In this document: positions 44,072 to 64,000 of the stretch, piece after piece
Numbering within the stretch: position 1 is the first letter of the stretch
Layout: every line of letters begins with the position of its first letter
Program-made: the position numbers and the translations under genes
The notes under the pieces: model-generated
What the model saw: the letters and a program-made list of their open reading frames with translations, nothing else
The model's database searches: none
Told to the model about the DNA's origin: nothing
DNA from: Myxococcota bacterium
Lineage (GTDB): Bacteria > Myxococcota_A > UBA9160 > UBA6930
Length of the DNA stretch: 64,000 bases
Reading direction: 5' to 3'
Assembly: GCA_965223415.1 (NCBI GenBank)
Contig: OZ245002.1
Coordinates: forward strand, 4,864,001-4,928,000

Positions 44072-44081
44072 CGCGAAAACC

Positions 44082-46930: not shown

Positions 46931-47028
46931 GCCCCCCTCCCTCACGGGGAACGTGCCGCGCAGCGGCTCAACAGGAGGTGCGCAAATCTACGTGTCCTCT
47001 TAGCCCTCGAATATCACGTCCTGCGACA

Positions 47029-47520: not shown

Positions 47521-47569
47521 CCGCTCTGACTGGCAGGATTCGAACCCCCGACCCTTGTATCTACTCCAC

Positions 47570-47745
47570 TCACCCGGATCTGGTTCAATAGGGTCAGAAC
47601 GGGTTTCGGGGGAGGGTCGCCGTCCCGACCCAGAGGCATGGTCCTCGTACCTGAGAGAGGCGCCCTCGCCCGATCTCGCAAGCTCGAACGGTATCCCGAG
47701 GCAGCGGTCTGCCGCTCGTCCTCGCATGCACAAGGAAGAGCACCG
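47570..47745 (+). ncRNA. Predicted IS110 bridge RNA, copy 1 (ends approximate)
   Basis: 5' hairpin; target loop with CCCGACCC (47624-31) and ACCTGAG (47649-55); donor loop with ACGGTATC (47688-95) and ACAAG (47730-34). Each guide matches the target or donor junction. Confidence 0.85.
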
Positions 47746-47794
47746 AGGTCGGCACCGAGGCTCCCGACGCTCCCGTTCGAGGAGGAAGAAGGGG

Positions 47795-48970
47795 ATGCGC
47801 TTCGTTGGGATCGACATCGCCTCGGAAACGCACGTCGTCGCGATGGTGGGAGAAGACGGGGGCGTGCTGCTGAAGCCGGTCTCGTTCCGGGAGGAGGCGG
47901 CTGGCTACGCACTGCTGTGGGAGAAGCTGGGAGGCCCCGAGGACACGCTCGTAACGCTCGAGGCAACGGGGCACTACTGGAAGAACCTGTTCGCGGCGCT
48001 TGCGGCGAGGGGTTTTGCCGTGGCGTTGATCAACCCGCTGCGCAGTCGCCGGTTCGCACAAGAAGACTTGGAGCGGACGAAGACCGACGCAATCGATGCG
48101 CTCGGCCTGGCTCGCTTCGGAGCACAGAAGCGTCCGAGGGTGACTCGCCTTCCGGACGCGGCGACAGAAGAGCTTCGTGAGCTCGTCCGGCTCCGCGATC
48201 GTCTGGTTCAGGACTTCGGGGACTGCACCCGGCGGCTCCACCGCATGGTCGATCTGGGCTTCCCAGAGCTCAAACGGTACGTGAAGCACCTCGATAGCCA
48301 GCTGTCGACGGGGCTGCTGCGGGAGTACCCCACGGCAAGAGCCTTCCAGGAAGCCTCTGTGGGGCGCGTGGCAAAGCTTCGCTACGACGGTCGTCATCGT
48401 GTAGGCGATGCGCTCGCGAAGCAGCTCGTCGAGGCTGCGCAGAACTCGGTGGGCGCCCATCATGGCCCGGCCTACCAGGTGCAGGTGCGTTACCTGTGCG
48501 AAGACATGGACGTCTTGCGCAAGAGACTCGGCGACATCGACCGCGACATCGCGGATCAGCTATCCGCGCACGAGGTCGGAAGCTTGCTGACGACGATCGA
48601 TGGGATCGGGCCGACGACGGCAGCACGGCTCATCGCGGAGCTCGGTGACCCGGCCGACTTCGCCACGGCCGCAGCCCTCGCCGCCTACGTGGGCGTCGTT
48701 CCAGGCCTAAAGCAGTCGGGCAAGCGCCAAGGCAAACGCGGGAACCTCTCGCCAATCGGTCACGCGCGGCTACGTCGCGCACTGTGGATGCCGACGTTGG
48801 TCGCCGTTCGGAAGAACCCCTGGGTGCGGGCCCACTACGAGCGGCTGCGCGACAACGGCAAGCCCGCAAAGGTCGCGCTGATCGCCTCGACGAGGAAGCT
48901 GCTCATCGCGGTTCACGTCGTGGCGAGGACCCGCAAGCCCTTCGTTCCACAGCTAGAGACCAACCCATGA
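47795..48970 (+). CDS. IS110 DEDD recombinase (391 aa)
   Basis: GIDIA, LEATG, KTDAID (DEDD); IDGIG; QSG serine loop; GAGGAGG upstream. Confidence 0.96.
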   Translation: MRFVGIDIASETHVVAMVGEDGGVLLKPVSFREEAAGYALLWEKLGGPEDTLVTLEATGHYWKNLFAALAARGFAVALINPLRSRRFAQEDLERTKTDAIDALGLARFGAQKRPRVTRLPDAATEELRELVRLRDRLVQDFGDCTRRLHRMVDLGFPELKRYVKHLDSQLSTGLLREYPTARAFQEASVGRVAKLRYDGRHRVGDALAKQLVEAAQNSVGAHHGPAYQVQVRYLCEDMDVLRKRLGDIDRDIADQLSAHEVGSLLTTIDGIGPTTAARLIAELGDPADFATAAALAAYVGVVPGLKQSGKRQGKRGNLSPIGHARLRRALWMPTLVAVRKNPWVRAHYERLRDNGKPAKVALIASTRKLLIAVHVVARTRKPFVPQLETNP

Positions 48971-49605
48971 ACCGAGAAAACCGGGCCCAGCCCCTTGCTG
49001 AAGATCACGGTATCTCAGGTTCGAAGCCTGATGCTCGATGTCGAGCCACCGGACAGCGCACTTCGAAGAACCGCGTGCATCCAGGCGTCAAGGGTCCGAG
49101 ATCAGGCGCTCCGCGCAACAACCAAGCACGACCAAAGTGCGGAACCAAGCACCGCCAGAACGCGAATTCCTCAGCGAATCCGGCGGCTTCTGGCGGGGCG
49201 GACGGGACTCGAACCTACAACCTCCGGCTGTAAGTCCGCGGAAACGCAGGGGTCCGAAGAGGTGAAGCTTGTATCCCGTTGTATCCCAACCGGGGCACGC
49301 CGGGCCAGGTAGGGCGATGGGGCGGCGGCGGGTAGCCGCCATCCCTCGGGTCCGCGAGCGAGCCCCCTTGCCAGCGCCTCGACGTGAGCTAAATCGGCAT
49401 TGGATCGCACGCAGACATCCCGGGGTCGAGGCCAAGGCGGCGTAGCCCCGGCATGGCTCTTGCGCGCGCCTTGTTGAGGATGTCGCCCGGGTCCGGGTGA
49501 GCTTCGCGTCCCCGCACTGCGGGGGCACGCATCTCCATCTCTTCAGGGCGCCACCGGTCCGCGATCGCGGCGCCCTGTCCCCTCGGCCGGGCGACGTGGG
49601 CCGGC

Positions 49606-50886: not shown

Positions 50887-50944
50887 AGAACCGCCGGCCC
50901 GGCGACATCCCCCTCAGCCAGATTGCGAGCGCGAGGGCGGCAGC

Positions 50945-52132
50945 GTGAAGCTCGCCATCCTCTCGAGAGAACCGCGGAGCTACAGCACGCGCCGCCTGAA
51001 GGAAGCCGCGCGGGAGCGCGGCCATCGGGCCCGCGTACTCGATCCGACGCTGTTCTCGATCGAAGTCGCGAGCGGGAACCCACACCTCTACTACAGAGGG
51101 CGCGCGCTGGAGCGTTTCGACGCGGTGATCCCGCGTATCGGCGCCTCCATCACCTTCTTCGGAACGGCGGTCGTGCGTCAGTTCGAACAGATGGGCGTGT
51201 TCTGCGTGAACACGTCCACGGCCATCTCGACGTCGCGCGACAAGCTCCGGGCGCTCCAGATCCTGAGCCGGCACCACGTCGGCATCCCGAAGACGTCCTT
51301 CGTTCGCGAGAAGAACGCGATGCTCGAAACGGTGGAGCGGATGAAGGGCCCGCCGGTCATCGTGAAGTTGCTGGAAGGGAGTCAAGGTCTGGGTGTGATC
51401 CTCGCCGAGACGAAGAAGTCCGCGGAGGCGATCGTCGAAACGCTCCAGTTTGCGACGGGCAACAATGTCCTCATCCAGGAATTCGTGGCCGAGTCGCGCG
51501 GCCGCGACATCCGCGCCTTCGTTGTCGACGGCCGGGTCGTCGCGGCCATGCGGAGAACGGCGCAGGAGAGCGAGTTCCGGAGCAACGTCCATCGCGGCGG
51601 GCTGGCCGACGCGGTGGAGCTCGATCCTGTGTACGAGCGCACCGCCATCCACGCTGCCCAGATCCTCGGGCTCCGGGTCGCCGGCGTGGACATGCTCGAG
51701 GGCGCCGATGGCCCGATGCTGATGGAGGTGAACTCGTCGCCCGGCCTCGAGGGCATCGAAGGGGCGACTGGCGTCGACATCGCGGCGACCATTCTCGAGA
51801 TGATCGAAGATCAGGTGCTCTTCCCCGAGATCGACATCCGGCAGCGACTCACACTGCAGAGCGGGTACGGCGTGCTCGAGATCCCGATCGACCGCGGGTC
51901 CGAGCTGTGCGGGCGGACGATTCGCGAGTCCGGTCTGAAGGGTCGGGACGTCCTCGTCCTCCAGATCCAGCGTGGCAGCGTCACGATCCCCAACCCGAAG
52001 ACGAGCCGGGAGATCCTGGCTGGCGACGTGCTGCTCTGTTTCGGCAAGACGTTGACCCTCCGCACCCTGGCGCCGGCACCGCGACGTCGCAATCGGCGTC
52101 GCGGCTCGGCCGTGGGGGCCGCCGATGGCTGA
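50945..52132 (+). CDS. rimK: RimK-family ATP-grasp alpha-L-glutamate ligase with C-terminal RCK-C (TrkA-C) domain
   Basis: YSTRRL, IPRIGAS, SRDKLR, EFRSNVHRGG, EVNSSPGLEGIE; tail SEL.G.TI.E..L...V.VL.I.R..IPNP...I.AGD.L. Confidence 0.88.
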   Translation: MKLAILSREPRSYSTRRLKEAARERGHRARVLDPTLFSIEVASGNPHLYYRGRALERFDAVIPRIGASITFFGTAVVRQFEQMGVFCVNTSTAISTSRDKLRALQILSRHHVGIPKTSFVREKNAMLETVERMKGPPVIVKLLEGSQGLGVILAETKKSAEAIVETLQFATGNNVLIQEFVAESRGRDIRAFVVDGRVVAAMRRTAQESEFRSNVHRGGLADAVELDPVYERTAIHAAQILGLRVAGVDMLEGADGPMLMEVNSSPGLEGIEGATGVDIAATILEMIEDQVLFPEIDIRQRLTLQSGYGVLEIPIDRGSELCGRTIRESGLKGRDVLVLQIQRGSVTIPNPKTSREILAGDVLLCFGKTLTLRTLAPAPRRRNRRRGSAVGAADG

Positions 52133-53156
52133 ATGCGTCGAGATCGCGGGAGAGACGATTCGGCGCGGGGAACGTCGGCGAATCCAGATCCCGCTGGCGC
52201 TGCGGCCGACACAGGCCGAGGTCTCGATGTCCGCGGAGGTCATCTGCGGGGCCCGGGACGGGCCGCAGCTCTTCGTGTGCGCCGGCATTCATGGGGACGA
52301 GATCAACGGGGTCGAGATCATCCGGCGCGTGTTGCGCCGCTCGTTCCGGGGGCTTCGGGGGACGCTCCTGGCGGTTCCGATCGTGAACGTCCACGGATTC
52401 GTGGCCCACAGCCGAACCCTGCCCGACCGGAGGGATCTGAACCGCGCCTTCCCGGGCTCGCCCCGAGGATCGCTCGCGGCGCGGCTTGCGCACCAGTTCA
52501 TGGAGAACGTGGTCAAGGCTTCGACGCATGGCATCGATCTCCACACGGCGGCGATCCACCGGGAGAACCTCCCGCAGATCCGCGCCTGCCTCGACGACTC
52601 CGAGACCGAAGAGCTCGCGCGAGCGTTCGGTACGCCCGTTCTGCTCAACTCCGACCTGCGCGACGGGTCGCTCCGCGAGGCGGGACAGGAGCACGGGGTT
52701 CCGGTCCTCGTCTACGAGGGCGGCGAGGCGCTGCGATACAACGAGGCCGCCATCCGCGCCGGCGTGCGCGGGGTGCTTCGCGTGATGCGCCAGCTCAGGA
52801 TGCTCCCGGATGCGGGCGATCGGGGTCGTATCATCGAGCCGTTCGTCGCCCGCAGCAGTGCCTGGGTACGTGCGCCCGAAAGCGGGCTGCTGCGGGTCCG
52901 CGCCAAGCTCGGTGCTCGCGTCAAGAAGGGGTTCGTCCTCGGCGTCATCTCCGACCCGCTGGGCACGGAGGATACGACCGTCAGCGCGAGCCGCGCCGGA
53001 ATCGTGGTGGGCCGCACGCGTCTTCCCGTCGTGAACGAGGGCGATGCACTCTTCCATGTCGCGAGCTTTGACGCGGTGCAATCCGTGGCGCGGGAGGTCG
53101 AGTCCTTCCACGATGAGCTGTTTGATTCCGGCGTTTCGCCCCCCATGGCGGACTGA
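52125..53156 (+). CDS. Succinylglutamate desuccinylase/aspartoacylase (M14-like) family protein
   Basis: IHGDEING, DLNRAFPG, IDLHT, YEGGEALR. Confidence 0.92.
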   Translation: MAECVEIAGETIRRGERRRIQIPLALRPTQAEVSMSAEVICGARDGPQLFVCAGIHGDEINGVEIIRRVLRRSFRGLRGTLLAVPIVNVHGFVAHSRTLPDRRDLNRAFPGSPRGSLAARLAHQFMENVVKASTHGIDLHTAAIHRENLPQIRACLDDSETEELARAFGTPVLLNSDLRDGSLREAGQEHGVPVLVYEGGEALRYNEAAIRAGVRGVLRVMRQLRMLPDAGDRGRIIEPFVARSSAWVRAPESGLLRVRAKLGARVKKGFVLGVISDPLGTEDTTVSASRAGIVVGRTRLPVVNEGDALFHVASFDAVQSVAREVESFHDELFDSGVSPPMAD

Positions 53157-53170
53157 GAAGGAGCAGATCG

Positions 53171-54361
53171 ATGCGCGGTTGGATCCTCGACGGCAAGCCC
53201 GTCCCGGACCCCTCACTCGAAGGCTACGAAGTTCGTCGGTTCCTGGAGGTCGGCGAGAGAGTCGGCATCGATGTCGACCTGGTCACGCCCGAGCAGCTCG
53301 ATCTCGTGGTGACGAGCAGTGGCCGCCCGAGCATCGCGCGGAACGGCAGATCCGTTCCGCTCCCCGACTTCCTGCTTCCGCGCATGGGTGCTTACACGAC
53401 CTACTTCGGGCTTGCCGTGATCCGGCACCTGGAACGCCTGGGAGTGCTGACGGTCAACTCGGCCGAGAGCATCGACACCGTGAAGGACAAGCTCTTCACC
53501 CACCAGATCCTCGCTCAGAACGAGCTGCCGATCGCGCGAACGATGCTCGCCAAACATCCGCTCGACGTCGCCTTCGTGGAGAAAGAGATCGGATTCCCGG
53601 TCGTCGTGAAGACGATCACCGGATCCCAGGGGGCCGGTGTCTTCCTTTGCGAGGATCGTCACCACTTCGAGGATCTGATGGAGCTCGTTCTCGCCGCGCG
53701 CAGCAACGCGAACCTGATCCTCCAGGAGTACGTGGCCTCGAGTCGAGGGCGCGATCTCCGCGTGTTCACGGTCGGCGGCCGCGCCGTGGCCGCGATGGAA
53801 CGTTCTTCGCAGGACGGCTCGTTCAAGGCGAATGTCTCGAGGGGCGGACGGGCCACCGCCTACTCGTTGGACGCCGAGAGCGAGTGGCTGGCGCTCGAAG
53901 TCACGCGCTTGCTGGGTCTCGACGTGGCGGGGATCGATCTGCTCTTCGACGGCGACCACTACCTCGTCTGCGAGGCGAACTCGTCGCCCGGTTTCCGCGG
54001 TCTCGAGTCGTGCTGCGCCGTCAGCATCCCGCACGAGATCCTGCGCTTTGCTGCGCTCCGCCTCGGTCGCCACGACGTCGCCGACCGGCTCGAGGTGGAT
54101 CTCGCGGAGTCGTTCGGCGACCCGCCGGTCGGCGTTGCGAGCACATGGTCCAACGCGCACTGTGCGGTGAGCGCTAGCGGCACCAGCGACGCAGAGCGCG
54201 CGCTCGCCGAGGTGGGCGCGGTCAAGGGCCAGGGTGGCTGCATGGCGATCGATGGGCGGGGTCGCATCACGACGGTCCTGAACAGCCCGCAGATGGTGCG
54301 AGCATCGCTCGTCGAGGGCGAGCCCATGCGTCTCGGGATCTGGACGGATGACGATGCGTGA
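53171..54361 (+). CDS. Second RimK-like ATP-grasp ligase with C-terminal isoaspartyl-peptidase-like extension
   Basis: PRMG, KDKL, GSQGAGV, FKANVSRGG, CEANSSPGF; tail GDPPVG..TW...CAVSASG...GG..AID..G....NS..M.RA. Confidence 0.82.
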   Translation: MRGWILDGKPVPDPSLEGYEVRRFLEVGERVGIDVDLVTPEQLDLVVTSSGRPSIARNGRSVPLPDFLLPRMGAYTTYFGLAVIRHLERLGVLTVNSAESIDTVKDKLFTHQILAQNELPIARTMLAKHPLDVAFVEKEIGFPVVVKTITGSQGAGVFLCEDRHHFEDLMELVLAARSNANLILQEYVASSRGRDLRVFTVGGRAVAAMERSSQDGSFKANVSRGGRATAYSLDAESEWLALEVTRLLGLDVAGIDLLFDGDHYLVCEANSSPGFRGLESCCAVSIPHEILRFAALRLGRHDVADRLEVDLAESFGDPPVGVASTWSNAHCAVSASGTSDAERALAEVGAVKGQGGCMAIDGRGRITTVLNSPQMVRASLVEGEPMRLGIWTDDDA

Positions 54362-54420
54362 CCACGACCTGCCTGGGCTGCCGCCCGGACTCACCCGCCG
54401 AACCCGACTTGGAGGCCGCC

Positions 54421-54765
54421 GTGGAAATCGCAAGAACTGGTGAGATCGTCCACATCATCGAGCGGCGCCTGTTCGTCGGTGATGTCCGCCGCCACTTCGT
54501 CGGAGAGGTCGAGGCGTGCGCCGACCGTGCGCTTCGGGTTCGTGGTTATCTCTTCGTCTATGACTCCTCCGAGAGCGCGTTCACGAAGAAGCCCGAGCTC
54601 CGCACTCGAATCTTCCCGCTCGACAATCGGCTGATCCTGAGCCTTTTGCCGCAGGGGACACACCTGGAACAGGTCCGATACGACCACGACGACGAGGGCA
54701 ACCTGTCCCTGGTCGACGGAGCCGACCTCGAGCTCGACATCAGCGAGTTCAGCTCCCGGGAGTAA
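54421..54765 (+). CDS. Hypothetical protein (start approximate)
   Basis: GGAGG RBS before GTG; last gene of the cassette operon. Confidence 0.6.
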   Translation: MEIARTGEIVHIIERRLFVGDVRRHFVGEVEACADRALRVRGYLFVYDSSESAFTKKPELRTRIFPLDNRLILSLLPQGTHLEQVRYDHDDEGNLSLVDGADLELDISEFSSRE

Positions 54766-54843
54766 CGGCCGCTCCGGAACCCCTCAGGCCGCGCGGGGCG
54801 TCCGTTGCACGGAGGCCTTCACCCCGCGTGCATGGAAACGGGG

Positions 54844-55140
54844 CACCACCCCCAGGTTCGAAGCCTGGTGCTCAACCTCGCTCCGCGCGGACACGAGCGC
54901 GCGTGTCGGCGAAGCTGGAACCCGCTTGGTTCCCGGATGTATCCCGCGCGCGTCGCGGCTCGACAACCGCTGCTCGCGCGTGGACTTACGCGCGAAGCGT
55001 GCGGGTTCCGAGAAACCCGAAAAGCTGAATGAAATCAGCTTGATGGCGGGGCGGACGGGACTCGAACCTACAACCTCCGGCTGTAACCTCCCGGAAACAC
55101 AGGGGTCCGAAGAGATGAAGCTTGTATCCCGTTGTATCCC
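54844..55140. repeat. tRNA-derived spacer repeat B
   Basis: CCCAGGTTCGAAGCCTGGTGCTC; divergent middle; core 55044-55086; TTGTATCCCGTTGTATCCC tail. Confidence 0.9.
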
Positions 55141-55258
55141 GACTTCGCCGGATCGCCATCGGGATGCTTGGCCACCGGCCTTCCGCCAGGACCGAGCCCG
55201 TGCGGAGCCGTGTGGCGCGCGCCTTGCCGTCATGACTGAATCCAACTATCGTACGTAC

Positions 55259-55486
55259 ATGACGAAGAGGCTGACGCGCTCTGGAAACAGCCTGGCCCTC
55301 GTGATCGATCGGCCTCTCCTGGAAGCGCTGGAAATCGACGCGGACACGGAGCTGGAGCTCTCCACCGATGGAGACGTCCTAGTCGTGACCCCGCTGCGCG
55401 ACCCCAAGCGGAGGCGTCGGGTCGCCGAGCTCGTTGCCGAAGCCCACGAGCAGTACGGCGGCGTGTTCCGACGCCTCGCCGAGTGA
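55259..55486 (+). CDS. AbrB/MazE-fold antitoxin
   Basis: KRLTRSGNSLALVID; stop overlaps the toxin GTG. Confidence 0.88.
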   Translation: MTKRLTRSGNSLALVIDRPLLEALEIDADTELELSTDGDVLVVTPLRDPKRRRRVAELVAEAHEQYGGVFRRLAE

Positions 55487-55875
55487 CCGACCCGCTCTTC
55501 CTGACCCTCGACGAGGTTCTGGCGATCCACGCCGATCAGATCCGGCGCTACGGCGGGCGGACTGGGCTGCGAGACATCGGCTTGCTGCAATCGGCGTTGG
55601 GCATGCCCGAGGCCACCTTCGAGGGCGAGTTCCTTCACGGGACGGTCTTCGAAATGGCCGCCGCCTACCTGTTCCACATCGCCCGCAACCACCCGTTCGT
55701 GGACGGCAACAAGCGAACAGCACTCATGTGCGCACTGGTGTTCCTCGGACTGAGCGGTTGGCGACTCGAGGCGGAGTCGGAGGCGCTCTACGAGCTGGTC
55801 GACGGCGTTGCCGCGGGGTCGATCGACAAGGCCGGGGTCGCGGTCTTCCTGCGCCAGAACTCCGTCAGCCGCTAG
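55483..55875 (+). CDS. doc: Doc (Fic-family) toxin
   Basis: HPFVDGNKRTA; G.RD..LL.SA...P. Confidence 0.92.
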   Translation: MTDPLFLTLDEVLAIHADQIRRYGGRTGLRDIGLLQSALGMPEATFEGEFLHGTVFEMAAAYLFHIARNHPFVDGNKRTALMCALVFLGLSGWRLEAESEALYELVDGVAAGSIDKAGVAVFLRQNSVSR

Positions 55876-55917
55876 TCGGGCCCAGCGCACGGGTGATTCG
55901 CTTGCCCCAACGCAGGC

Positions 55918-56190
55918 GACTCGAACCCCCGACCCCCCGGTTCGAAGCCTGATGCTCAACCCCGTGCGGCGAGTCGCGTGGATGCAGGCGTCAGGAGTCC
56001 GAGATCAGGCGCTCGCCGCGACAACCAAACGCAACCAAAGGCCGGAACCAAGCACCGCCAGAATGCGAATTCCCCTGCGAATCCGGCTACTTCTGGCGGG
56101 GCGGACGGGACTCGAACCTACAACCTCCGGCTGTAACTCCGCGGAAACGCAGGGGTCCAGGGAGCTGAAGCTGGTATCCCGTTGTATCCC
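55918..56190. repeat. tRNA-derived spacer repeat C (intact, empty)
   Basis: TCGAACCCCCGACCCCCCGGTTCGAAGCCTGATGCTC; middle shared with A, D and E; core 56094-56136; GTATCCC pair. Confidence 0.92.
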
Positions 56191-56206
56191 GACCTCCGAT
56201 CGCGCT

Positions 56207-56235
56207 CCGACATCTGATAGCCAATTGGCTATTAT
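56207..56235 (+). promoter_or_regulatory. Promoter with palindromic operator for the HTH-NTase pair
   Basis: CCGACA-17-TATTAT; perfect palindrome ATAGCCAATTGGCTAT at 56217-56232; ATG 6 nt after the -10. Confidence 0.7.
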
Positions 56236-56241
56236 TCGAGC

Positions 56242-56568
56242 ATGTCGATCGCGAGCATCGTCCGCGAGGCCCGCCGCCGCGCGGGCCTCACCCAGGCCGC
56301 GTTGGCGGAGAAGGCGGGCGTTCCCAAGTCCACCGTCGGCCGGATCGAGTCTGGGGCGCGAACACCTTCGGTGGAGCTCGTGGAGCGACTCGTCGAGGCG
56401 GCTGGTCTGGAGGTCACGATTGCCCTGTCGGAACCCGATCCCGGCACCGACTCGATGTTCGAACGCACGCTGCGCCGCACCCCTGCAGAGCGGCTCGCCG
56501 ATGCGACGCGAGTCGCGCGCTTCGTCTTGCGCGGCAAGCGCCAGATCGCGGCCGCTTCCGATGGCTAG
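56242..56568 (+). CDS. XRE-family HTH protein (putative antitoxin/regulator)
   Basis: REARRRAGLTQAALAEKAGV..STVGRIESG..PS. Confidence 0.88.
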   Translation: MSIASIVREARRRAGLTQAALAEKAGVPKSTVGRIESGARTPSVELVERLVEAAGLEVTIALSEPDPGTDSMFERTLRRTPAERLADATRVARFVLRGKRQIAAASDG

Positions 56569-57076
56569 CGCCGACTTCGACCCGGAGAGAATGCTCTCCG
56601 CTCTGGCCGCGGAAGGCGTGCAGTTCGTGCTGATCGGTGGGATGGGGGCCATCCTGCACGGCGACGTCGGCGTCACCGTCGATCTGGACGTGGTCCCCGA
56701 CCGCGACGCCGCGAACCTCCAACGTCTCGCGCGAGCTCTCCGGACACTTGGAGCGCGCATCCGAACCGAGGGCGAGCCGGAGGGACTGGCCTTCGACTGC
56801 TCGGCACAGTTCTTCGCCAACCTGTCACCCGACTCGATCGTGAACATGACCACGGAGGCGGGCGATCTGGACGTCACGTTCTGCCCGAGCGGAACCCAAG
56901 GCTTCAAGGACCTTCGGCGCGATGCGATCGAGATCGAAGCGGCGAAGCGCCTCCACATCCTGGTCGCATCACTCGGAGACATCATCCGCTCGAAGGAAGC
57001 CGCCGGCCGCGACAAGGACCGCCTCGCCCTTCCCCGCCTTCGCAGGCTGCTGGACCGCCTCGGCGAGAGCGAGTAG
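56561..57076 (+). CDS. Nucleotidyltransferase-fold protein (putative toxin; AbiEii/DUF6036-like)
   Basis: VLIGG.G..HG..T.DLD, later D, SK..AGR.KD. Confidence 0.8.
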   Translation: MASADFDPERMLSALAAEGVQFVLIGGMGAILHGDVGVTVDLDVVPDRDAANLQRLARALRTLGARIRTEGEPEGLAFDCSAQFFANLSPDSIVNMTTEAGDLDVTFCPSGTQGFKDLRRDAIEIEAAKRLHILVASLGDIIRSKEAAGRDKDRLALPRLRRLLDRLGESE

Positions 57077-57120
57077 CCGCGACCTGGGACTCGAACCCCC
57101 AACCCTTGTATCTACTCCAC

Positions 57121-57296
57121 TCACCCGGATCTGGTTCAATAGGGTCAGAACGGGTTTCGGGGGAGGGTCGCCGTCCCGACCCAGAGGCATGGTCCTCGTA
57201 CCTGAGAGAGGCGCCCTCGCCCGATCTCGCAAGCTCGAACGGTATCCCGAGGCAGCGGTCTGCCGCTCGTCCTCGCATGCACAAGGAAGAGCACCG
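57121..57296 (+). ncRNA. Predicted IS110 bridge RNA, copy 2 (ends approximate)
   Basis: Same sequence as copy 1, offset 9551. Confidence 0.85.
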
Positions 57297-57345
57297 AGGT
57301 CGGCACCGAGGCTCCCGACGCTCCCGTTCGAGGAGGAAGAAGGGG

Positions 57346-58521
57346 ATGCGCTTCGTTGGGATCGACATCGCCTCGGAAACGCACGTCGTCGCGATGGTGG
57401 GAGAAGACGGGGGCGTGCTGCTGAAGCCGGTCTCGTTCCGGGAGGAGGCGGCTGGCTACGCACTGCTGTGGGAGAAGCTGGGAGGCCCCGAGGACACGCT
57501 CGTAACGCTCGAGGCAACGGGGCACTACTGGAAGAACCTGTTCGCGGCGCTTGCGGCGAGGGGTTTTGCCGTGGCGTTGATCAACCCGCTGCGCAGTCGC
57601 CGGTTCGCACAAGAAGACTTGGAGCGGACGAAGACCGACGCAATCGATGCGCTCGGCCTGGCTCGCTTCGGAGCACAGAAGCGTCCGAGGGTGACTCGCC
57701 TTCCGGACGCGGCGACAGAAGAGCTTCGTGAGCTCGTCCGGCTCCGCGATCGTCTGGTTCAGGACTTCGGGGACTGCACCCGGCGGCTCCACCGCATGGT
57801 CGATCTGGGCTTCCCAGAGCTCAAACGGTACGTGAAGCACCTCGATAGCCAGCTGTCGACGGGGCTGCTGCGGGAGTACCCCACGGCAAGAGCCTTCCAG
57901 GAAGCCTCTGTGGGGCGCGTGGCAAAGCTTCGCTACGACGGTCGTCATCGTGTAGGCGATGCGCTCGCGAAGCAGCTCGTCGAGGCTGCGCAGAACTCGG
58001 TGGGCGCCCATCATGGCCCGGCCTACCAGGTGCAGGTGCGTTACCTGTGCGAAGACATGGACGTCTTGCGCAAGAGACTCGGCGACATCGACCGCGACAT
58101 CGCGGATCAGCTATCCGCGCACGAGGTCGGAAGCTTGCTGACGACGATCGATGGGATCGGGCCGACGACGGCAGCACGGCTCATCGCGGAGCTCGGTGAC
58201 CCGGCCGACTTCGCCACGGCCGCAGCCCTCGCCGCCTACGTGGGCGTCGTTCCAGGCCTAAAGCAGTCGGGCAAGCGCCAAGGCAAACGCGGGAACCTCT
58301 CGCCAATCGGTCACGCGCGGCTACGTCGCGCACTGTGGATGCCGACGTTGGTCGCCGTTCGGAAGAACCCCTGGGTGCGGGCCCACTACGAGCGGCTGCG
58401 CGACAACGGCAAGCCCGCAAAGGTCGCGCTGATCGCCTCGACGAGGAAGCTGCTCATCGCGGTTCACGTCGTGGCGAGGACCCGCAAGCCCTTCGTTCCA
58501 CAGCTAGAGACCAACCCATGA
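57346..58521 (+). CDS. IS110 DEDD recombinase (391 aa)
   Basis: Protein identical to 47795-48970. Confidence 0.96.
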   Translation: MRFVGIDIASETHVVAMVGEDGGVLLKPVSFREEAAGYALLWEKLGGPEDTLVTLEATGHYWKNLFAALAARGFAVALINPLRSRRFAQEDLERTKTDAIDALGLARFGAQKRPRVTRLPDAATEELRELVRLRDRLVQDFGDCTRRLHRMVDLGFPELKRYVKHLDSQLSTGLLREYPTARAFQEASVGRVAKLRYDGRHRVGDALAKQLVEAAQNSVGAHHGPAYQVQVRYLCEDMDVLRKRLGDIDRDIADQLSAHEVGSLLTTIDGIGPTTAARLIAELGDPADFATAAALAAYVGVVPGLKQSGKRQGKRGNLSPIGHARLRRALWMPTLVAVRKNPWVRAHYERLRDNGKPAKVALIASTRKLLIAVHVVARTRKPFVPQLETNP

Positions 58522-58887
58522 ACCGAGAAAACCGGGCCCAGCCCCTTGCTGAAGATCACGGTATCTCAGGTTCGAAGCCTGGTGCACAAGCCGGTTCAGA
58601 GAGGCTCGCGGATGCAGGCGTCAGGGGTCCGAGATCAGGCGCTCGCCGCGACAACCGAGCGCGACCAAAGAGCGGAACAAACCGCTGCCAGAGCGCGAAG
58701 CGAAAAGCTGAATGAAATCAGCTAGACGGCGGGGCGGACGGGCTCGAACGCGCGGAGCCCGGCGATAAGGGCCCGGAATCGTGAGGGTTTTCCTCGCCGG
58801 TGCTCAAGCTGTGCTCAAGGAAGCCTCGGAGGCCAGGCCGGCGGGATCGTGTTGTTGGAGTACGGTCCTGACGATATGGTTACCCGT

Positions 58888-59133
58888 ATGAAGACGACAG
58901 TCGAGATTCCGGATCCGCTGGCCGACGAAGCCAAGGCCGTCGCGCAGCGCGACAAGACCACGCTTCGCGAGCTCATCGAGACGGGACTTCGACTGGTGCT
59001 TCGAGAGCGACGGCGCAAGACCCGCTTTCGCCTTTGCGACGCCAGCTTCCGAGGACGCGGGCTTCAGCCGGAGTACCAGGACGAAGACTGGCAGCGGATT
59101 CGAAACGCTGCCTACAAGGGCCGCGGCGGTTGA
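58888..59133 (+). CDS. VapB-like RHH antitoxin (DUF2191-like)
   Basis: MKTTVEIPD.L..EAK..A..TLRELIE.GLR. Confidence 0.85.
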   Translation: MKTTVEIPDPLADEAKAVAQRDKTTLRELIETGLRLVLRERRRKTRFRLCDASFRGRGLQPEYQDEDWQRIRNAAYKGRGG

Positions 59134-59564
59134 TCGCCGTCGACACGAATCTCCTCGTCTACGCCCACCGCGCAGAATCCGATTGGCACGGTCGAGCTGC
59201 GGCATGCGTTCGCGAGCTCGCAGACGCGAGAGCGCCGTGGGCCATCCCGTGGCCATGCATCCACGAGTTCCTCGCCATCGCGACCCATCCCAGGATCTGG
59301 GACCCGCCCTCGCCCACGGAGGCGGCGCTCGACCAGGTCGAAGCCTGGATCGAATCGCCCGGGCTGGTCTTGCTCGCGGAGGGCGCGGATCACTGGAGCG
59401 AGCTTCGCGGCCTGGTCGAGGCCAGTCGCATCGTGGGGCCGCGGGTCCACGACGCGCGCATCGCAGCTCTTTGCCGCGCGCATGGCGTACGCGAACTATG
59501 GACAGCGGACCGCGACTTCAGCCGGTTCTCGAGCCTCGTCACGGTGAACCCGCTGACTCGCTAG
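59130..59564 (+). CDS. vapC: VapC PIN-domain toxin
   Basis: IAVDTNLLVYA, EF, HDARIAA, TADRDF. Confidence 0.92.
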   Translation: MIAVDTNLLVYAHRAESDWHGRAAACVRELADARAPWAIPWPCIHEFLAIATHPRIWDPPSPTEAALDQVEAWIESPGLVLLAEGADHWSELRGLVEASRIVGPRVHDARIAALCRAHGVRELWTADRDFSRFSSLVTVNPLTR

Positions 59565-59591
59565 CCGGGGCATCGCACGCTGCAACAGGCG

Positions 59592-59795
59592 ATCCCCAAC
59601 CCTCGGGGTTGGAGCCCAACCAGGCGCTCGTGGCGACAACCGAGCACGACCAAAGCGCGGAACCAAGCGCCGCCAGAACGCGAATTCCTCAGCGAATCCG
59701 GCGGCTCGTGGCGGGTCGGACGGGACTCGAACCTACAACCCCCGGCCGTAACCCCTCGGAAACGCAAGGGTTCGTAGGACTGCAGCTTGTATCCC
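59592..59795. repeat. tRNA-derived spacer repeat E (shortened left part)
   Basis: CCCCAACCCTCGGGGTTGGAGCC; middle close to repeat A; core 59709-59751; TTGTATCCC. Confidence 0.88.
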
Positions 59796-59840
59796 GCCAT
59801 CGCCCCGCCCTCCCTGGGCCTTGCGCCCGGGCTTGGGCCA

Positions 59841-59885
59841 ATAACCCAAGAATAAGGTTATAAAACCTATTATTTGGGTTATACT
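59841..59885 (+). promoter_or_regulatory. AT-rich 42-bp inverted repeat (operator) overlapping a -10 box
   Basis: ATAACCCAA..AGGTT / AACCT..TTGGGTTAT at 59841-59882; TATACT at 59880. Confidence 0.75.
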
Positions 59886-59914
59886 TCACGCCGGAATCGA
59901 CGGGTGGACCCAGC

Positions 59915-60247
59915 ATGCTCGAAGGCATCTTCGGAAACGCCAGCGCGGAAAAGGTCCTCCTCTATCTGGAGCAGTACGAGGAAGGGTACGCGACGGCGAT
60001 GGCTCGAACTTTCGACGACCTCTCGCTGAACATGGCCCAGCGGCAGCTCGAGCGGTTCGAGCGGGCCGGTGCGCTTGTGAGCTCACTCCGAGGCCGAACC
60101 CGCCTCTACACATGGAATCCTCGCTACCCGTTTCGCCGGGAGCTGCGGGCCCTGCTTCGCAAGGCCCTCGACCAACTGCCCGCCTCCGAGCGGAAGCGCT
60201 ACTTCACCGAGCGCAGACGGCCGCGCCGTGCGGGCAAGCCACTGTGA
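59915..60247 (+). CDS. Winged-helix protein (putative antitoxin/regulator)
   Basis: LEGIFGN..EKVLLYL..Y...A..Q.QL.RFE..G.L.S..G.TRLY..NP.YPF. Confidence 0.75.
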   Translation: MLEGIFGNASAEKVLLYLEQYEEGYATAMARTFDDLSLNMAQRQLERFERAGALVSSLRGRTRLYTWNPRYPFRRELRALLRKALDQLPASERKRYFTERRRPRRAGKPL

Positions 60248-60795
60248 ACGCGCAGCATCGGATCGACGAGGACACCTCCCTCGAGGAGGTCGCCGCTCTC
60301 GTCTGCACGACCCTCGAGGCGCACGGCATCTCGGTCGTGCTCTCCGGCGGCGCCGTCGTCTCGATCTACTCCGACGCCGAATACGTCTCCTACGACCTGG
60401 ACTTCATCCCGATCGGACTCGCTCGGAAAGTCGATGGCGCCATGGAGTCACTCGGCTTCGAGAAGCGGCAGCGCCACTGGACGCATCACCGAAGCCGGTA
60501 CTGGGTCGAGTTCCCTCCCGGCCCCGTCGCCATCGGGGAAGAGACGATTCGCAGCTTTGCGGAACGCGAGACCCGGGCAGGGACCCTGCGCCTCCTCGCT
60601 CCGACCGAGTGCGTGATGGATCGGCTGGCCTGGTATTTCCATGACGCGGACACGCAGTGCCTCGAGCAGGCGGTTCGTGTTGCGACGCTCCAGCCGGTGG
60701 ACCTGAAGCGCATCGAACGGTGGGCGCGCGGCGAAGGGCCTCGTGGCGAGGAGCGATTTCGGGAGTTCGAGCGGAGGCTGCACGAGAAGAAATGA
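60244..60795 (+). CDS. Nucleotidyltransferase-fold protein (putative toxin)
   Basis: VLSGGA..IYS..Y.S.DLDF, EFP, DRLA; GTG overlaps the upstream stop. Confidence 0.78.
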   Translation: MNAQHRIDEDTSLEEVAALVCTTLEAHGISVVLSGGAVVSIYSDAEYVSYDLDFIPIGLARKVDGAMESLGFEKRQRHWTHHRSRYWVEFPPGPVAIGEETIRSFAERETRAGTLRLLAPTECVMDRLAWYFHDADTQCLEQAVRVATLQPVDLKRIERWARGEGPRGEERFREFERRLHEKK

Positions 60796-60816
60796 CGCGG
60801 ACTTGCGCGTCGTCGC

Positions 60817-61028
60817 GGTGCAGGGGGGTGCAATAGGGTGCAGGGAGGTGTCGTTTCGACGGCACCGAACCGCGGGACGGCACCATACAGAGCGCGAACG
60901 GGTAGGTTCCGGACCTGCCCGAGCGGGATTCGAACCCCCGACCCCCAGGTTCGAAGCCTGAACGGACCCGTAGGAAATCCAAATGGTTGCGCGATTCCGA
61001 GCGGGAATGAACGGGAATACGCGGGAAT
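60817..61028. repeat. tRNA-derived repeat F: tRNA-Arg(UCG) 3' fragment flanked by phased direct repeats
   Basis: Fragment at 60916-60960 (minus strand CAGGCTTCGAACCTGGGGGTCGGGGGTTCGAATCCCGC); GGTGCA at 60817/60827/60837; CGGGAAT at 61002/61012/61022. Confidence 0.85.
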
Positions 61029-61209
61029 ACGGGCACAAAATGGTCACGCGAGAGAGAGCGTTCCGGGACCTTACTCGATGACCCTTTTGCGCGGCGACTC
61101 GGCGTGAGTCACGCCTCGGAGCGAGAGTCCTGGCCGATGATTCACGGGTGCCGCACGGCGAAGAAGGCGAGGCCCGGCCGAGCAGTAAGTAAGGCGTTGG
61201 TACGGTCCC

Positions 61210-61674
61210 CTATCCGTCCCGGGACTTCGAACGCACTTGCTCGAAGGCCTTCTTGATATGTGGCGAACTGTCCGCGCGAACCTGCGGAACGCCTTCCTGC
61301 AGTTGTATCCAGCCCGGGAGATGGTCCTCGACCCCGAAATAGAACGAAGGGGACTCGATCTCGAGCGGCTCATCCAGCGTGCCGATAAAGATGCTCTCGA
61401 GGTTGCTCATGTCCCCGGTCGCATAGCTGTGCCCGATGTGCGTCCCACACTCCGGACAGAAGTGCCTCTCGAGAATTGGTGAGGTCATGAACCGGGCCGG
61501 TTCCCCCTTCGTGAACCGGAAGCTGTCGAGATCGAAGAAGGCGCCCGTTCCTGCAGCCATCCCCGTCCAACGCTGGCACATCCGGCAATGGCACATGCCG
61601 GTCGTGACGGGCGATTCCGTCGATTCATATCGGATCGCCCCACAGTAACAGCCCCCGGAGAATGTTCTGGGCAT
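61210..61674 (-). CDS. GFA (CENP-V) family protein
   Basis: GGCYCG..CHCRMCQR..FCPECGT. Confidence 0.9.
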   Translation of the reverse strand: MPRTFSGGCYCGAIRYESTESPVTTGMCHCRMCQRWTGMAAGTGAFFDLDSFRFTKGEPARFMTSPILERHFCPECGTHIGHSYATGDMSNLESIFIGTLDEPLEIESPSFYFGVEDHLPGWIQLQEGVPQVRADSSPHIKKAFEQVRSKSRDG

Positions 61675-61862
61675 GGCTCTCCCCGATGCGACGTCTATTC
61701 GTAAGTCCTCGTCCATTGTCGCCTCTGCACCGGCAGCCTGTCCACCGGGGTTGCTTCTCACGCACTGATGGTTCGGACGAGGCCTTCCTCGGCGTGCGGA
61801 GATGAGTCACCGCGGGCGGGTGCCGAATCCCTTCGGACCTCGGTGACGGGTTGGTCATCGCT

Positions 61863-62522
61863 TCAGGAGCTTGGTCCCTCCTCGTAGTCGAGCGCATCGC
61901 GCGCCCGCTCGGCGATCGCTTCGTACACCGAGCGCGCCCAGGCCTCCTTCTCGTCATCGAGCTCGATGGTCTCCCAGTCTGAGACCGCCGCCTGGGCCCA
62001 CTCCCCCCACTCGCCGAGCGCGGTCGCCAAACGCGCGACCAGCTCGGCCACGAGCGCCGCCGTGTGGATCCGCTCGGGCACCGCGAAACCGTCTTCCAGC
62101 AGCGCCTCGGTCCCCGCGACGGCCTGGTGCAGCCACTCGGACCGACGTTGCCGCCCGCGCGCGAGCGTCTCGCGAAGCTGTTCGATGTCGCTGGCGGTCG
62201 CGTAGGCAATCTTGAGCGCGAACTCGAGTTCGAACGAGGCGGGGGGCGCCGGAACCGAGAGCCAGTGCGCGAGAGCGCGACGGCCGGCCGGCGTGATGCG
62301 ATACACGGTGCGCTCGCGTGCTCCCGAGCGCTCCTTGCGGCTCTTCGCGTAGCCCGCTGCCTCGAGGTCCTTGGGCGCCTGATAGATCTTGCTCTCGGCT
62401 CGCGGCCAGACGAAGCGGAGATTGCTGCTGGTCTTCATGTGGCGCGCGAGCTCGTAGGCGGACCAGGGGCGCGCGGCGAGCAGGCCGAGGATCGCGTAGG
62501 CGTTCGGACTCAGGTCGGGCAT
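61863..62522 (-). CDS. PadR-family transcriptional regulator
   Basis: AILGLL..SAYEL..W...S.IY..LE..G..R.VY.IT..GR..L..WL. Confidence 0.9.
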   Translation of the reverse strand: MPDLSPNAYAILGLLAARPWSAYELARHMKTSSNLRFVWPRAESKIYQAPKDLEAAGYAKSRKERSGARERTVYRITPAGRRALAHWLSVPAPPASFELEFALKIAYATASDIEQLRETLARGRQRRSEWLHQAVAGTEALLEDGFAVPERIHTAALVAELVARLATALGEWGEWAQAAVSDWETIELDDEKEAWARSVYEAIAERARDALDYEEGPSS

Positions 62523-62532
62523 CGCAGAAATA

Positions 62533-62566
62533 TACTCCCTTAGGGAGTAATCTGTGTATACTCCCA
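62533..62566. promoter_or_regulatory. Palindromic operator between padR and the CoA ligase gene
   Basis: TACTCCCT-T-AGGGAGTA at 62533-62549, plus a second TATACTCCC half-site at 62557. Confidence 0.7.
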
Positions 62567-62606
62567 ATGGAAGCAGATCTTCCAGCCCTCCGAGGAGGCG
62601 ACTGCG

Positions 62607-64000
62607 ATGACGAGCCCCGAGTCGATGATCCCGCCCGCCGTGGGCGATTATGAGGTCGACCGCCAGCGCCATTGCGCAGCGATGGGCGCGGGTCTTGGCG
62701 AGGAGGTCGCCCGGCTCGGTGCCGGCCCGGTCGAGATCGCCCGGATCCGGGACGAGCGCCTGCGCGGCCTGCTGGCCCACGCCCGCACTCACTCGCCGTG
62801 GCATCGCGAGCGCCTCGCCGGGCTCGAGGTCGACCGTATCTCTGCGGCCGACGTGAGCGCGCTGCCCTCCATGACGAAGGCCGACCTCATGGAGTACTGG
62901 GACGAGATCGTCTGCGACCCGCAGCTCGACCTGAAGCAGGTCGAGGCCCACATCGAACGCATCGCACACGACGGTCCGTCTTACCTGCACGACCGGTACC
63001 ACGCGCTCGCGACGGGCGGGTCGACGGGCAGGCGGGCCGTCGTCGTCTGGGACTTCGACGGCTTCAGGATCACCGGAACACGCTCGCCGGCGTGGAGCCT
63101 GTCGTGTAGCGTGCACCTGGGTCTGCCGACATCGTTGCCGATCGTCGCCTGCATCGTCGCGTCCAAGGGCGCGACACACCTCGGCGGCGCGGTGAACGCC
63201 TGCTTCTCCAACCCCGAGAGGGCAACCTACGTCTCGGTCGCCGCGTCCCAGCCGATGGAAGAGATCGTCCGGATCCTCGAGGAGGCGCAGCCGGTCGTCC
63301 TCAGCGGCTACGCGTCGACGCTGCAGCAGCTCGCGGAGCTGAAGCTCGCCGGTCGCCTCGATATCGCGCCGGCCCAGGTTGTCCAGGGAGGCGAGCCCTT
63401 CCTTCCCGAGGCGCGCGCCGCGGTCGACGCCGGCTTCGGATGTCCCGTACGCGACCAATGGGGAGCGTCGGAGATCGGCTGGGGCGGCTCGTCGTTCCCC
63501 GGGACGGAAGGCATCGTGCTCTGCGAGGATCTCGTGACCGTCGAGCCTGTCGATGGCGACGGGCGCCCTGTCGGCCTCGGTGAGCCGGCCGCGAAGCTGT
63601 TCGTCACCAACCTCGTCAACCGCGTGCTGCCGGTCATCCGCTACGAGATCAGCGACGAAGCGACGATGGTCGCCCCCGATCCCGACTGCCCCTGGACGGG
63701 GCATCGCCTCCTCGCGATTGAGGGCCGACGGGACGACGTGTTCACGTACGGCGATCGCACGGTCCATCCCCACGCGTTTCGCAGCGTGCTCACGACCCAC
63801 GGAGCCATCGCCGAGTACCAGGTGCGACAGACCGAGCACGGAGCCGATGTCGACGTCGTCGGAGCCGCACCCGGCGCGTGTGATGCGCTCGAAGGGTCGA
63901 TCGCGGGCGCGCTCGCCCGCGCGGGCCTCGACTCGCCCCTCGTCCGCGTCACGCCGGTCGAGTCGATCCCACGCCAGCCGAATAGCCACAAGCTGAGGCG
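62607..64000 (+). CDS. Phenylacetate-CoA ligase (PaaK-like) family protein (3' end outside window)
   Basis: GAGGAGG RBS; LP.MTKADL, TGGSTG, GGEP, WGASE, TNL..PVIRY, EGRRDD. Confidence 0.85.
   Translation, partial: MTSPESMIPPAVGDYEVDRQRHCAAMGAGLGEEVARLGAGPVEIARIRDERLRGLLAHARTHSPWHRERLAGLEVDRISAADVSALPSMTKADLMEYWDEIVCDPQLDLKQVEAHIERIAHDGPSYLHDRYHALATGGSTGRRAVVVWDFDGFRITGTRSPAWSLSCSVHLGLPTSLPIVACIVASKGATHLGGAVNACFSNPERATYVSVAASQPMEEIVRILEEAQPVVLSGYASTLQQLAELKLAGRLDIAPAQVVQGGEPFLPEARAAVDAGFGCPVRDQWGASEIGWGGSSFPGTEGIVLCEDLVTVEPVDGDGRPVGLGEPAAKLFVTNLVNRVLPVIRYEISDEATMVAPDPDCPWTGHRLLAIEGRRDDVFTYGDRTVHPHAFRSVLTTHGAIAEYQVRQTEHGADVDVVGAAPGACDALEGSIAGALARAGLDSPLVRVTPVESIPRQPNSHKLR

Follow-up and report, generated by a model that had tools for sequence, protein, structure and literature searches.

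Probable guide-directed occupancy of tRNA-like repeats by a two-copy IS110-family element from a Myxococcota bacterium

In two reports (PMC11208160, PMC11208158), IS621 is described as an IS110-family element with a DEDD and Ser recombinase. It carries in its left end a bridge RNA with target- and donor-binding internal loops, and circularization of the element restores its promoter. In the target of IS621, 7 nt are followed by the core CT and then by a right target; bottom-strand pairing is made by the left guide, and top-strand pairing by the right guide, which is 4 nt in length. IS621 targets one repeated, hairpin-forming sequence, the REP element. Its natural insertion was found at ATCAGGCCTAC while the guide specifies ATCGGGCCTAC, so that position 4 holds one rG:dT pair (PMC11208160). 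In the core, the main chain of G63 reads the second T, which is described as "almost invariant"; cleavage follows the core on the top strands and lies further into the left target on the bottom strands (PMC11208158). Both the tolerance of rG:dT at position 4 and the core-T rule are already published for IS621. For ISPpu10, another IS110 element, one preprint (bioRxiv 10.64898/2026.03.19.712850) places all copies in the copies of one intergenic repeat, and a GC-rich stem-loop is required in the target 5' of the site.

We analyzed one 64,000-nt stretch of contig OZ245002.1 (hereafter the window), which contains two IS110-family elements (Table 1). The two copies are 100% identical in the pairwise comparison, and the core CT is present at the left and right junctions of both; they are fresh insertions of one IS110-group element. 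Profile search of the recombinase identified PF01548 (E 3.4e-36, residues 4-157) and PF02371 (E 3.3e-28, residues 263-349). Its best match among solved structures is the ISCro4 transposase (PDB 9t56, E 4.6e-37), which has the same two domains, as compared by name and alignment only. The IS621 recombinase (8wt6) is a distant relative, which was aligned in two blocks only (phmmer E 1.2e-35). The GID, EATG, KTDxxDA (here KTDAIDA) and SG motifs are kept between the two proteins, and QSG lies opposite the ESG of IS621 in the catalytic-serine region. Scanning of genome contigs with the recombinase gave 80 loci of 54-71% identity, the closest relative among representative genomes being 71% identical in amino acids. 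None of the 80 loci is a further copy of the same element, and a megablast search of plasmids with copy 2 and its flanks gave no match.

Table 1. Positions of the sites, element copies and predicted RNA features in the window
Feature	Position	Strand	Remark
Site A, left target CCCGACC + core CT	47547..47555	+	left junction of copy 1
IS110-family element, copy 1	47556..49015	+	1,460 bp, right-hand core CT included; recombinase CDS 47795-48970
Site A, right target CAGGT	49016..49020	+	3' of copy 1
Empty site B, CACCACC-CC-CAGGT	54844..54857	+	two left-target mismatches and C at core position 2
Empty site C, CCCGACC-CC-CCGGT	55928..55941	+	C at core position 2; right-target position 2 mismatched
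Site D, left target CCCAACC + core CT	57098..57106	+	left junction of copy 2
IS110-family element, copy 2	57107..58566	+	1,460 bp, identical to copy 1
Target-binding module of bridge RNA	57159..57222	+	consensus fold and guide-to-flank covariation
Outer stem, target-binding module	57159-72 / 57210-22	+	alignment fold
LTG (left target guide) CCCGACCCA	57175-83	+	pairs with left target; also written CCCGACCC(A)
Inner hairpin, target-binding module	57184-97	+	alignment fold
RTG (right target guide) ACCUGAG	57200-06	+	pairs with core and right target
Donor-binding module of bridge RNA	57239..57285	+	LDG, inner hairpin, RDG
LDG ACGGUAUCC	57239-47	+	matches RE end ACGGTAT-C
RDG GCACAAG	57279-85	+	ACAAG complementary to CT-TGT at LE start
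Recombinase, 391 aa	57346..58521	+	DEDD_Tnp_IS110 and Transposase_20 domains
-35-like TTGCTG in right end	58546..58551	+	pairs with TATCTA 57109-57114 across circle junction
Site D, right target CAGGT	58567..58571	+	3' of copy 2
Look-alike E, CCCAACC-CT-CGGGG	59595..59608	+	part of hairpin after vapC
Most complete tRNA-like fragment (F)	60911..60980	-	anticodon arm loop CUUCGAA, variable region, T arm, 3' acceptor strand
Empty site F, CCCGACC-CC-CAGGT	60937..60950	+	only core position 2 departs from guide-specified target

Like IS621, the element is predicted to carry its bridge RNA in the non-coding left end, which is 239 nt in length. We aligned 50 left ends, that of the window and those of 49 of the 61 usable related loci; the other 12 were omitted as near-duplicates or because of long insertions. 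The consensus fold contains two modules, each composed of a stem, an internal loop and a hairpin, and compensatory changes were observed in 15 of its 32 pairs. Folded by itself, the left end does not reach a better minimum free energy than shuffled sequences do (z -0.24), and the loops are not cleanly visible; the architecture rests on the alignment. An Rfam scan of 44000-64000 at E<=1, the left end included, returned zero matches. In the target-binding module, the LTG reads CCCGACCC followed by one A that faces the core T. Together with the RTG, CCCGACCC would specify the 14-bp target, with the left guide on the bottom strand and the right guide on the top strand, as in IS621. The donor-binding loop would recognise the joined ends of the element, ACGGTAT-CT-TGT; the LDG segment ACGGUAUC fits the right end and the ACAAG of the RDG fits the left end. 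One putative promoter, TTGCTG-17-TATCTA with a 17-nt spacer, is present only across the computed circle junction, and relatives carry TTGAC in place of TTGCTG. As described for IS621, the promoter would be rebuilt only on the excised circle, and the bridge RNA is probably expressed. Compared to IS621, the right guide is longer (5+2 nt versus 4 nt), and the left guide ends in CA instead of CU, lacking the pairing base opposite the core T. Taken together, these features support the assignment of the two-copy element as a putative bridge-RNA element of the IS110 family.

All six 14-mers of the original prediction are present as quoted, and sites A and D are occupied by the identical elements; the range assigned to the series, 54844..60950, covers the start of B to the end of F, with site A (47547-49020) lying outside. 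Our pairing table of the six sites confirmed that A pairs perfectly with the guides, that D differs by one single rG:dT wobble, at left-target position 4, and that B, C, E and F each deviate from the guide-specified target. No other site with two or fewer mismatches exists in the 64-kb window. When three mismatches are allowed, 20 matches of the 14-mer were observed and 14.9 ± 3.6 were expected, which is the chance level; B and E, with three mismatches each, are not significant as bare 14-mers. Different results were obtained for the flanking motif AGGTTCGAAGCCTG: at two or fewer mismatches it occurs five times on the + strand and six times on both strands, with 0.40 expected, and six matches were reached in none of 100 shuffles. 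This excess indicates that A, B, C, D and F form a real repeat family. The flanking repeat backs B, not E. In B, homology can be recognised from about the core to the right only, and the T-arm part is unrecognisable. Site E is one 7-bp hairpin directly after the vapC stop. In the register of the 220-nt repeat D1, in which 59590 is equivalent to 55975 and 49072, E aligns 52 nt downstream of the position of the tRNA-like fragment in unit C; E was therefore rejected as a repeat copy. The six sites had been presented as a natural specificity series. Their sequences and deviations are real, but E is not homologous, and two or three positions are changed in each of B and C, which leaves F as the sole site that isolates one variable.

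We propose that the element entered both repeats that satisfy the core CT and the right target CAGGT, A by perfect pairing and D through the rG:dT at position 4. B, C and F, the other homologous repeats, all have C at core position 2, which most likely blocks them, because the recombinase would read the T directly, the A of the RTG would face C, and the cores of target and donor would differ. We regard guide-directed occupancy of A and D with a core-T requirement, taken as a whole, as probable, and CC sites are presumably unusable. The guide alone, which had been put forward as the explanation, does not account for the choice on the left side. The left guide faces the core T with A instead of U and cannot read CT versus CC. 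Discrimination is thus left to the RTG A together with the donor core and the protein, and of the two RNA readings of the core that have been published, one is missing here.

The requirement for a CT core was also claimed originally, and the two insertions do not establish it. An empty site does not show that it cannot be used, and F (perhaps also C) may be usable and simply unhit in two transposition events. By chance, F would be empty in 1 of 3 cases among the three best sites and in 1 of 10 cases among the five homologous repeats, and it departs from the target at one base that the left guide does not read. However, the second base of the left junction is T in 59 of 61 relatives and CC was observed in none, so that insertion at a CC core, the contrary case raised beforehand, was not seen at the related left junctions. 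In addition, F would place C opposite the RTG A, and in IS621 the second core T is almost invariant and contacted by the protein (PMC11208158). We therefore consider chance occupancy unlikely.

The related loci also report on the target outside the core. Right-target positions 1-5 agree with the guide in 50, 50, 47, 47 and 42 of 50 loci, respectively, positions 1-2 (CA) being invariant; at positions 6-8 the agreement falls to 14, 7 and 9 of 50. The left target matches its guide at 4.10 of 7 positions on average, compared to 2.98 in shuffled pairings (none of 2000 shuffles was as high), and at least five of seven positions match in 25 of 61 loci. This covariation fits a strict right target and a tolerant left target. 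For the claim that a left-target wobble is tolerated, site D and the precedent of IS621 speak in favor. Among the left-target mismatches of the relatives, however, no enrichment of the wobble type was found (7 of 32 versus 0.20 expected, p 0.45); at position 4 three of five mismatches are of this type, and beyond that position wobble tolerance has no clade-wide support.

It could be argued that the CT at A and D was made by insertion, the repeats having formerly been CC and the donor core having been copied in. All three remaining homologous repeats are CC, and at site D the tRNA-like positions 27:43 form a C:A mismatch in the stem, as if G43 (CC core) were ancestral. At site A, however, the Watson-Crick pairing of T27:A43 is consistent with native CT, and CT stands at both junctions of both copies. 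The left junctions of the relatives vary (GT, TT, AT) whereas the right junctions are CT in 50 of 50, which indicates that the sequence at the left junction reflects the target. By analogy with the cut positions reported for IS621 (PMC11208158), and with target-type positions 6-7 (CC) at the left junction, the left junction should keep the target's own core. Copying-in of the core is thus very unlikely, and we retain native CT cores at A and D.

Target structure was weighed as another determinant. Besides base pairing, recombination may need hairpins on both sides of the crossover, the T-arm one on the left and the anticodon one on the right; B and E would then be excluded irrespective of how they pair. 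The T-arm-like part is kept in A, C, D and F and is lacking in B and E, and E is empty even though it pairs at 12 of 14 positions when wobbles count. The GC-rich, T-arm-like hairpin 5' of the left target also resembles the stem-loop that ISPpu10 requires (bioRxiv 10.64898/2026.03.19.712850); compared to ISPpu10, the repeat family is different, and the hairpin is at best a candidate determinant here. However, F is empty with its full context, and the invariant right-target CA in the relatives may by itself exclude E and C. We consider a requirement for such context improbable, and prefer the reading from guides and core T.

The repeats themselves resemble 3' parts of tRNA genes. For the loop CUUCGAA and the T arm GGGGGUUCGAAUCCC of fragment F, alignments were obtained with two tRNA-Arg(tct) genes of phages, and tRNA-Arg genes underlie 12 of the 15 best phage matches, with weak E-values of 8e-3 to 0.3. 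The repeats may derive from tRNA-Arg(UCG). The 14-bp target would lie at the junction of the variable region and the anticodon stem (tRNA positions 38-51), and the tRNA-Arg-like 3' fragments stand between the toxin-antitoxin cassettes of the island. Fragment F was not detected as a tRNA gene; Rfam gave only sub-threshold matches on F alone (tRNA-Sec model, 16.9 bits, cut-off 47) and nothing meaningful on unit C. No intact tRNA was found in the 64-kb window by ARAGORN, nor in 44000-64000 by Rfam at E<=1; one "tRNA-???" call at 59085-59169 lies inside vapBC and was rejected as dubious. On 60 of the 80 related loci, ARAGORN identified no tRNA-Arg(UCG), only one tRNA-Met and one tRNA-Arg(tct). An 8-nt CTTGTATC in the D3 repeat, considered as a remnant of an IS end, was rejected as unsupported, the identity being 8 nt only.

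It is conceivable that the guide is tuned to scars of tRNA-Arg(UCG), with the core T (A43) versus C (G43) separating dispensable scars from the working gene, but we give this idea little credence. If true, the element would be an RNA-guided transposon with a built-in safe harbour that spares an essential tRNA, and, the left guide having lost its base opposite the T, the choice would fall to the protein together with the right guide.

As a natural, in-genome illustration from a distant relative, this locus follows the targeting rules derived from IS621 and leaves the known mechanism unchanged; the case is neat but unexceptional. With IS621 (PMC11208160, PMC11208158) it shares the organization of the target, the rG:dT at left-target position 4 and the core T, here read from two insertions and relatives. 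Both elements target a repeated, hairpin-forming sequence, which is a tRNA-like fragment here and a REP element in IS621. Two points are added: a family of tRNA-like fragments can host an IS110 element as its repeat, and a natural bridge RNA may forgo left-guide pairing to the core T. The surroundings may resemble another class of locus. Integrative elements that target tRNA genes leave arrays of partial tRNA genes, for example in tycheposon islands. Different from those arrays, no tyrosine integrase was found beside the array of the window, and each unit contains two different tRNA-like fragments; as in those arrays, cargo cassettes are separated by tRNA 3' fragments.

Two copies of one IS110-family element, with every base identical, split the 14-bp sites A and D. 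The junctions read ...CCCGACC-CT, TGTATC...GGTAT-CT, CAGGT... at site A and ...CCCAACC-CT, TGTATC...GGTAT-CT, CAGGT... at site D, each with CT on both sides of the element. Outside the 14-bp site, the sequences around the two copies are not the same; they therefore represent two separate insertions, not one duplicated block. Between non-coding ends of 239 nt (left end, LE) and 45 nt (right end, RE), each copy contains one ORF of 391 aa with DEDD_Tnp_IS110 (PF01548, 3.4e-36) and Transposase_20 (PF02371, 3.3e-28) domains. The recombinase aligns to the solved structures of ISCro4 (9t56, 4.6e-37) and IS621 (8wt6, 1.2e-35), and the GID, EATG, KTDxxDA and SG motifs are kept. At the sequence level, every feature that defines the IS110-group bridge elements is present.

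The putative bridge-RNA region matched no Rfam family, and the left end folded alone was not more stable than shuffled sequences (z -0.24); the case for a bridge RNA was therefore built from relatives. Scanning representative genomes with the recombinase gave 80 loci of 54-71% identity, none of which holds the same element. At least 290 nt upstream were available in 65 of the 80; the left-end start (TGT...) was recognisable in 61 of these, and the right end (...ACGGTAT-CT) also in 50 of the 61. The left ends of the window element and 49 of the 61 loci were aligned, 12 being omitted as near-duplicates or for long insertions. The consensus fold contains two modules, each composed of a stem, an internal loop and a hairpin, and 15 of the 32 pairs keep pairing via changes on both sides. 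In the relatives, the two sides of the module 1 loop follow different flanks: the 5' side changes together with the left flank, the 3' side together with the right one. Reverse-complemented, the 3' side gives the core plus the right target: positions 1-5 match in 50, 50, 47, 47 and 42 of the 50 loci, and matches drop to 14, 7 and 9 at right-target positions 6-8. For the 5' side, the mean number of matches to the seven non-core left-target bases is 4.10, compared to 2.98 for shuffled pairings (0 of 2000 shuffles as high). Module 2 bears ACGGUAUCC and ACAAG, which fit the ends of the element itself, ACGGTAT-CT and CT-TGT. The predicted anatomy is that of the published bridge RNA (PMC11208160). 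When RE is joined to LE computationally, the junction reads TTGCTG, a 17-nt spacer and TATCTA; a circle-junction promoter is known for the family (PMC11208160), and this is its predicted counterpart.

The original prediction, that occupied and empty sites follow the guides, was confirmed as an observation, and its description of the six sites is correct. Site A pairs at 7/7 left-target bases, the first core base, both core pairs of the right target guide (RTG) and 5/5 right-target bases, and site D differs by one rG:dT at left-target position 4. The sole deviation of the empty site F is C at core position 2. Site C has this C together with a mismatched right-target position 2; in site B it is accompanied by two left-target mismatches. 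Site E has the D-type wobble and a CT core; in its right target, position 2 forms rU:dG and position 5 is mismatched. Nowhere else in the 64-kb window does a site differ from the specified target at two positions or fewer. E had been counted as an empty member of the repeat family, but it is not homologous: copies of the 220-nt repeat D1 align in register at 49072, 55975 and 59590, which puts E 52 nt downstream of the tRNA-like fragment position in unit C. Unit E lacks the fragment, and its vapC stop directly adjoins the repeat. E forms a 7-bp hairpin; its 9-mer CCCAACCCT is about as frequent as chance predicts (CCCRACCCT: 4 matches, 1.9 expected). The homology of B to the repeat starts only at about the core and extends rightwards.

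Read on the minus strand, the repeats look like part of a tRNA, with an anticodon arm (loop CUUCGAA, anticodon UCG) followed by a variable region of 5 nt and a T arm; the F fragment also includes the 3' acceptor strand. ARAGORN and Rfam detected none of them as tRNA. Over the anticodon arm-T arm part they align with two phage tRNA-Arg(tct) genes, and 12 of the 15 best phage matches fall on annotated tRNA-Arg genes, with weak E-values of 8e-3 to 0.3. We infer that the repeats are att scars of tRNA-targeting elements. The IS target corresponds to tRNA positions 38-51 and the core to 43-44, CT giving A43 and CC giving G43. ARAGORN found no intact tRNA-Arg(UCG) in the window or in the 60 of the 80 relative loci that were scanned. 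The F fragment also has matches at the very ends of two Ralstonia phage genomes, ON170318.1 and ON170358.1 (84% over 43 nt), suggestive of a tRNA-Arg-type attachment core located at the phage termini. One ARAGORN call, 'tRNA-???' at 59085-59169 (-), has a 2-base anticodon, overlaps the vapB/vapC junction and is most likely false.

The core-binding bases of the left target guide (LTG) are CT in 33 of the 61 relatives, TT in 16, GT in 5, TC in 4, and CA, CC and GC in one each; the nearest left-end relative, L006, has the same final A as the window element. Because the last base of the guide is A in these two rather than the U of other relatives, base pairing opposite the core T is missing in both, and the left guide cannot read CT versus CC. 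In IS621, the main-chain amide of G63 recognises the second core T, described as 'almost invariant' (PMC11208158), and the first core base is changeable (PMC11208158 and PMC11208160). The EATG motif, which holds the corresponding glycine, is conserved here. The right junction is CT in 50/50 relatives. The left junction is CT in 48 of 61, GT in 7, TT in 3, GC in 2 and AT in 1, with T second in 59 and CC never; both GC cases come from a subgroup with another left-end start, where the boundary call is less certain. At a CC site, C would stand opposite the RTG A and the target core would cease to match the donor core; CC sites are probably unusable by the element. Left junction and left guide are both TT in L053, L061 and L076, and both GT in L057, L069 and L070. 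Five of these six have a readable right end (not L070), and in all five a CT right junction goes with AG in the right guide; thus, the two guides specify different first core bases in nature.

It is unlikely that the CT at A and D was created by insertion itself. In IS621, top-strand cleavage falls directly behind the core and bottom-strand cleavage further into the left target; we deduced these positions from the pairings stated in PMC11208158. Left-target positions 6-7 of the left junction carry target-type bases, so the target's own core should remain there, and the variable left and constant right junctions of the relatives agree with this. The tRNA-like pair 27:43 is T:A at site A, fitting a native CT, and C:A at site D, which leaves a little room for doubt.

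The original prediction read the sites as a natural specificity series, with CT core and right target needed and a left wobble tolerated. This reading is credible because of IS621, which has a natural insertion at ATCAGGCCTAC with a guide specifying ATCGGGCCTAC, giving rG:dT at the same position 4 (PMC11208160); the pair is G53:tT11* in PMC11208158. The interpretation is partly supported and was already anticipated in these papers. As statistics the series is weak, with only two insertions: among A, D and F, all within one mismatch, the chance of F being the empty one is 1 in 3, and among five homologous repeats exactly both CT ones would be hit with a chance of 1 in 10. Emptiness of a site is no proof that the element cannot use it. 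As a general rule, wobble tolerance has no support across the clade: 25 of the 61 relatives match the guide at 5/7 or more left-target positions, and of the 32 mismatches in these, 7 are wobble-type (0.20 expected, p 0.45). Positions 1-2 account for 20 of the 32; of the 5 mismatches at position 4, 3 are of the wobble type.

The element probably works like IS621. Different from IS621, its recombinase being a distant relative, it has a right guide of 5+2 nt, lacks left-guide pairing to the core T, and targets tRNA-like fragments rather than REP elements. A literature search of limited coverage turned up no publication in which an IS110 element targets tRNA-derived repeats.

The sites lie in an array of small cassettes (47000-61000) separated by the tRNA-Arg-like repeats. 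The boundary of each cassette consists of a tRNA-Arg-like fragment, a conserved spacer of 130-220 nt (repeats D1/D5; no Rfam match) and a second, CCA-ending tRNA-like fragment that precedes the cassette. No integrase was found near the array.

Features of the element, its guides and the cassette array
Feature	Position	Remarks
IS110-family element copy 1	47556-49015	1,460 bp
IS110-family element copy 2	57107-58566	1,460 bp
LTG	57175-83	CCCGACCCA
RTG	57200-06	ACCUGAG
LTG end CA	57182-57183 (and 47631-47632)	CU in 33/61 relatives
MazE-Doc cassette	55258-55875	
XRE-nucleotidyltransferase (XRE-DUF6036) cassette	56242-57076	
VapBC cassette	58891-59564	
HTH + unknown pair cassette	59915-60795	
MFS/RimK/AstE/RimK block	49497-54765	
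Repeat D3	49191-49290, 55044-55143, 56094-56193, 59709-59808	4 copies, 80-100% identical
IS21-type element	44862-46945 (-)	IstA 45659-46945; IstB domain in 44862-45660
Truncated copy of 60112-60795 gene	47014-47520 (+)	adjoins IS21-type element; stop inside
rve_3 fragment	43509-44123	

On the minus strand, repeat D3 finishes like the 3' end of a tRNA, with T loop GGTTCGAGTCC, acceptor strand and CCA, and is weakly similar to the 3' ends of phage tRNA-Trp and tRNA-Asp; no matching 5' half was found. Its end (55120-55143 and equivalent places in other copies) reads CT-TGTATCCCG-T-TGTATCCCG, and the first 8 nt, CTTGTATC, are identical to the IS core plus left-end start. With 8 nt, this may be chance or a donor-like half-site, the latter considered because 'half-match' recombination is reported for IS621 (bioRxiv 10.64898/2026.08.31.748434).

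The truncated gene copy is 81% identical to its counterpart (repeat D4, covering 47026-47325); with the IS21-type element beside it, this region is a sink for mobile elements. Elsewhere, D16 is a perfect 36-bp tandem duplication (5732-5803). Seven relatives (L008, L010, L012, L015, L020, L026, L032) form a Myxococcaceae/Archangium subgroup with left ends starting TGTGG or TGTTGG. All seven adjoin one motif in the left flank, GGGGT.CAGGGGGAGA(C/T), so this subgroup also resides in a repeat family.
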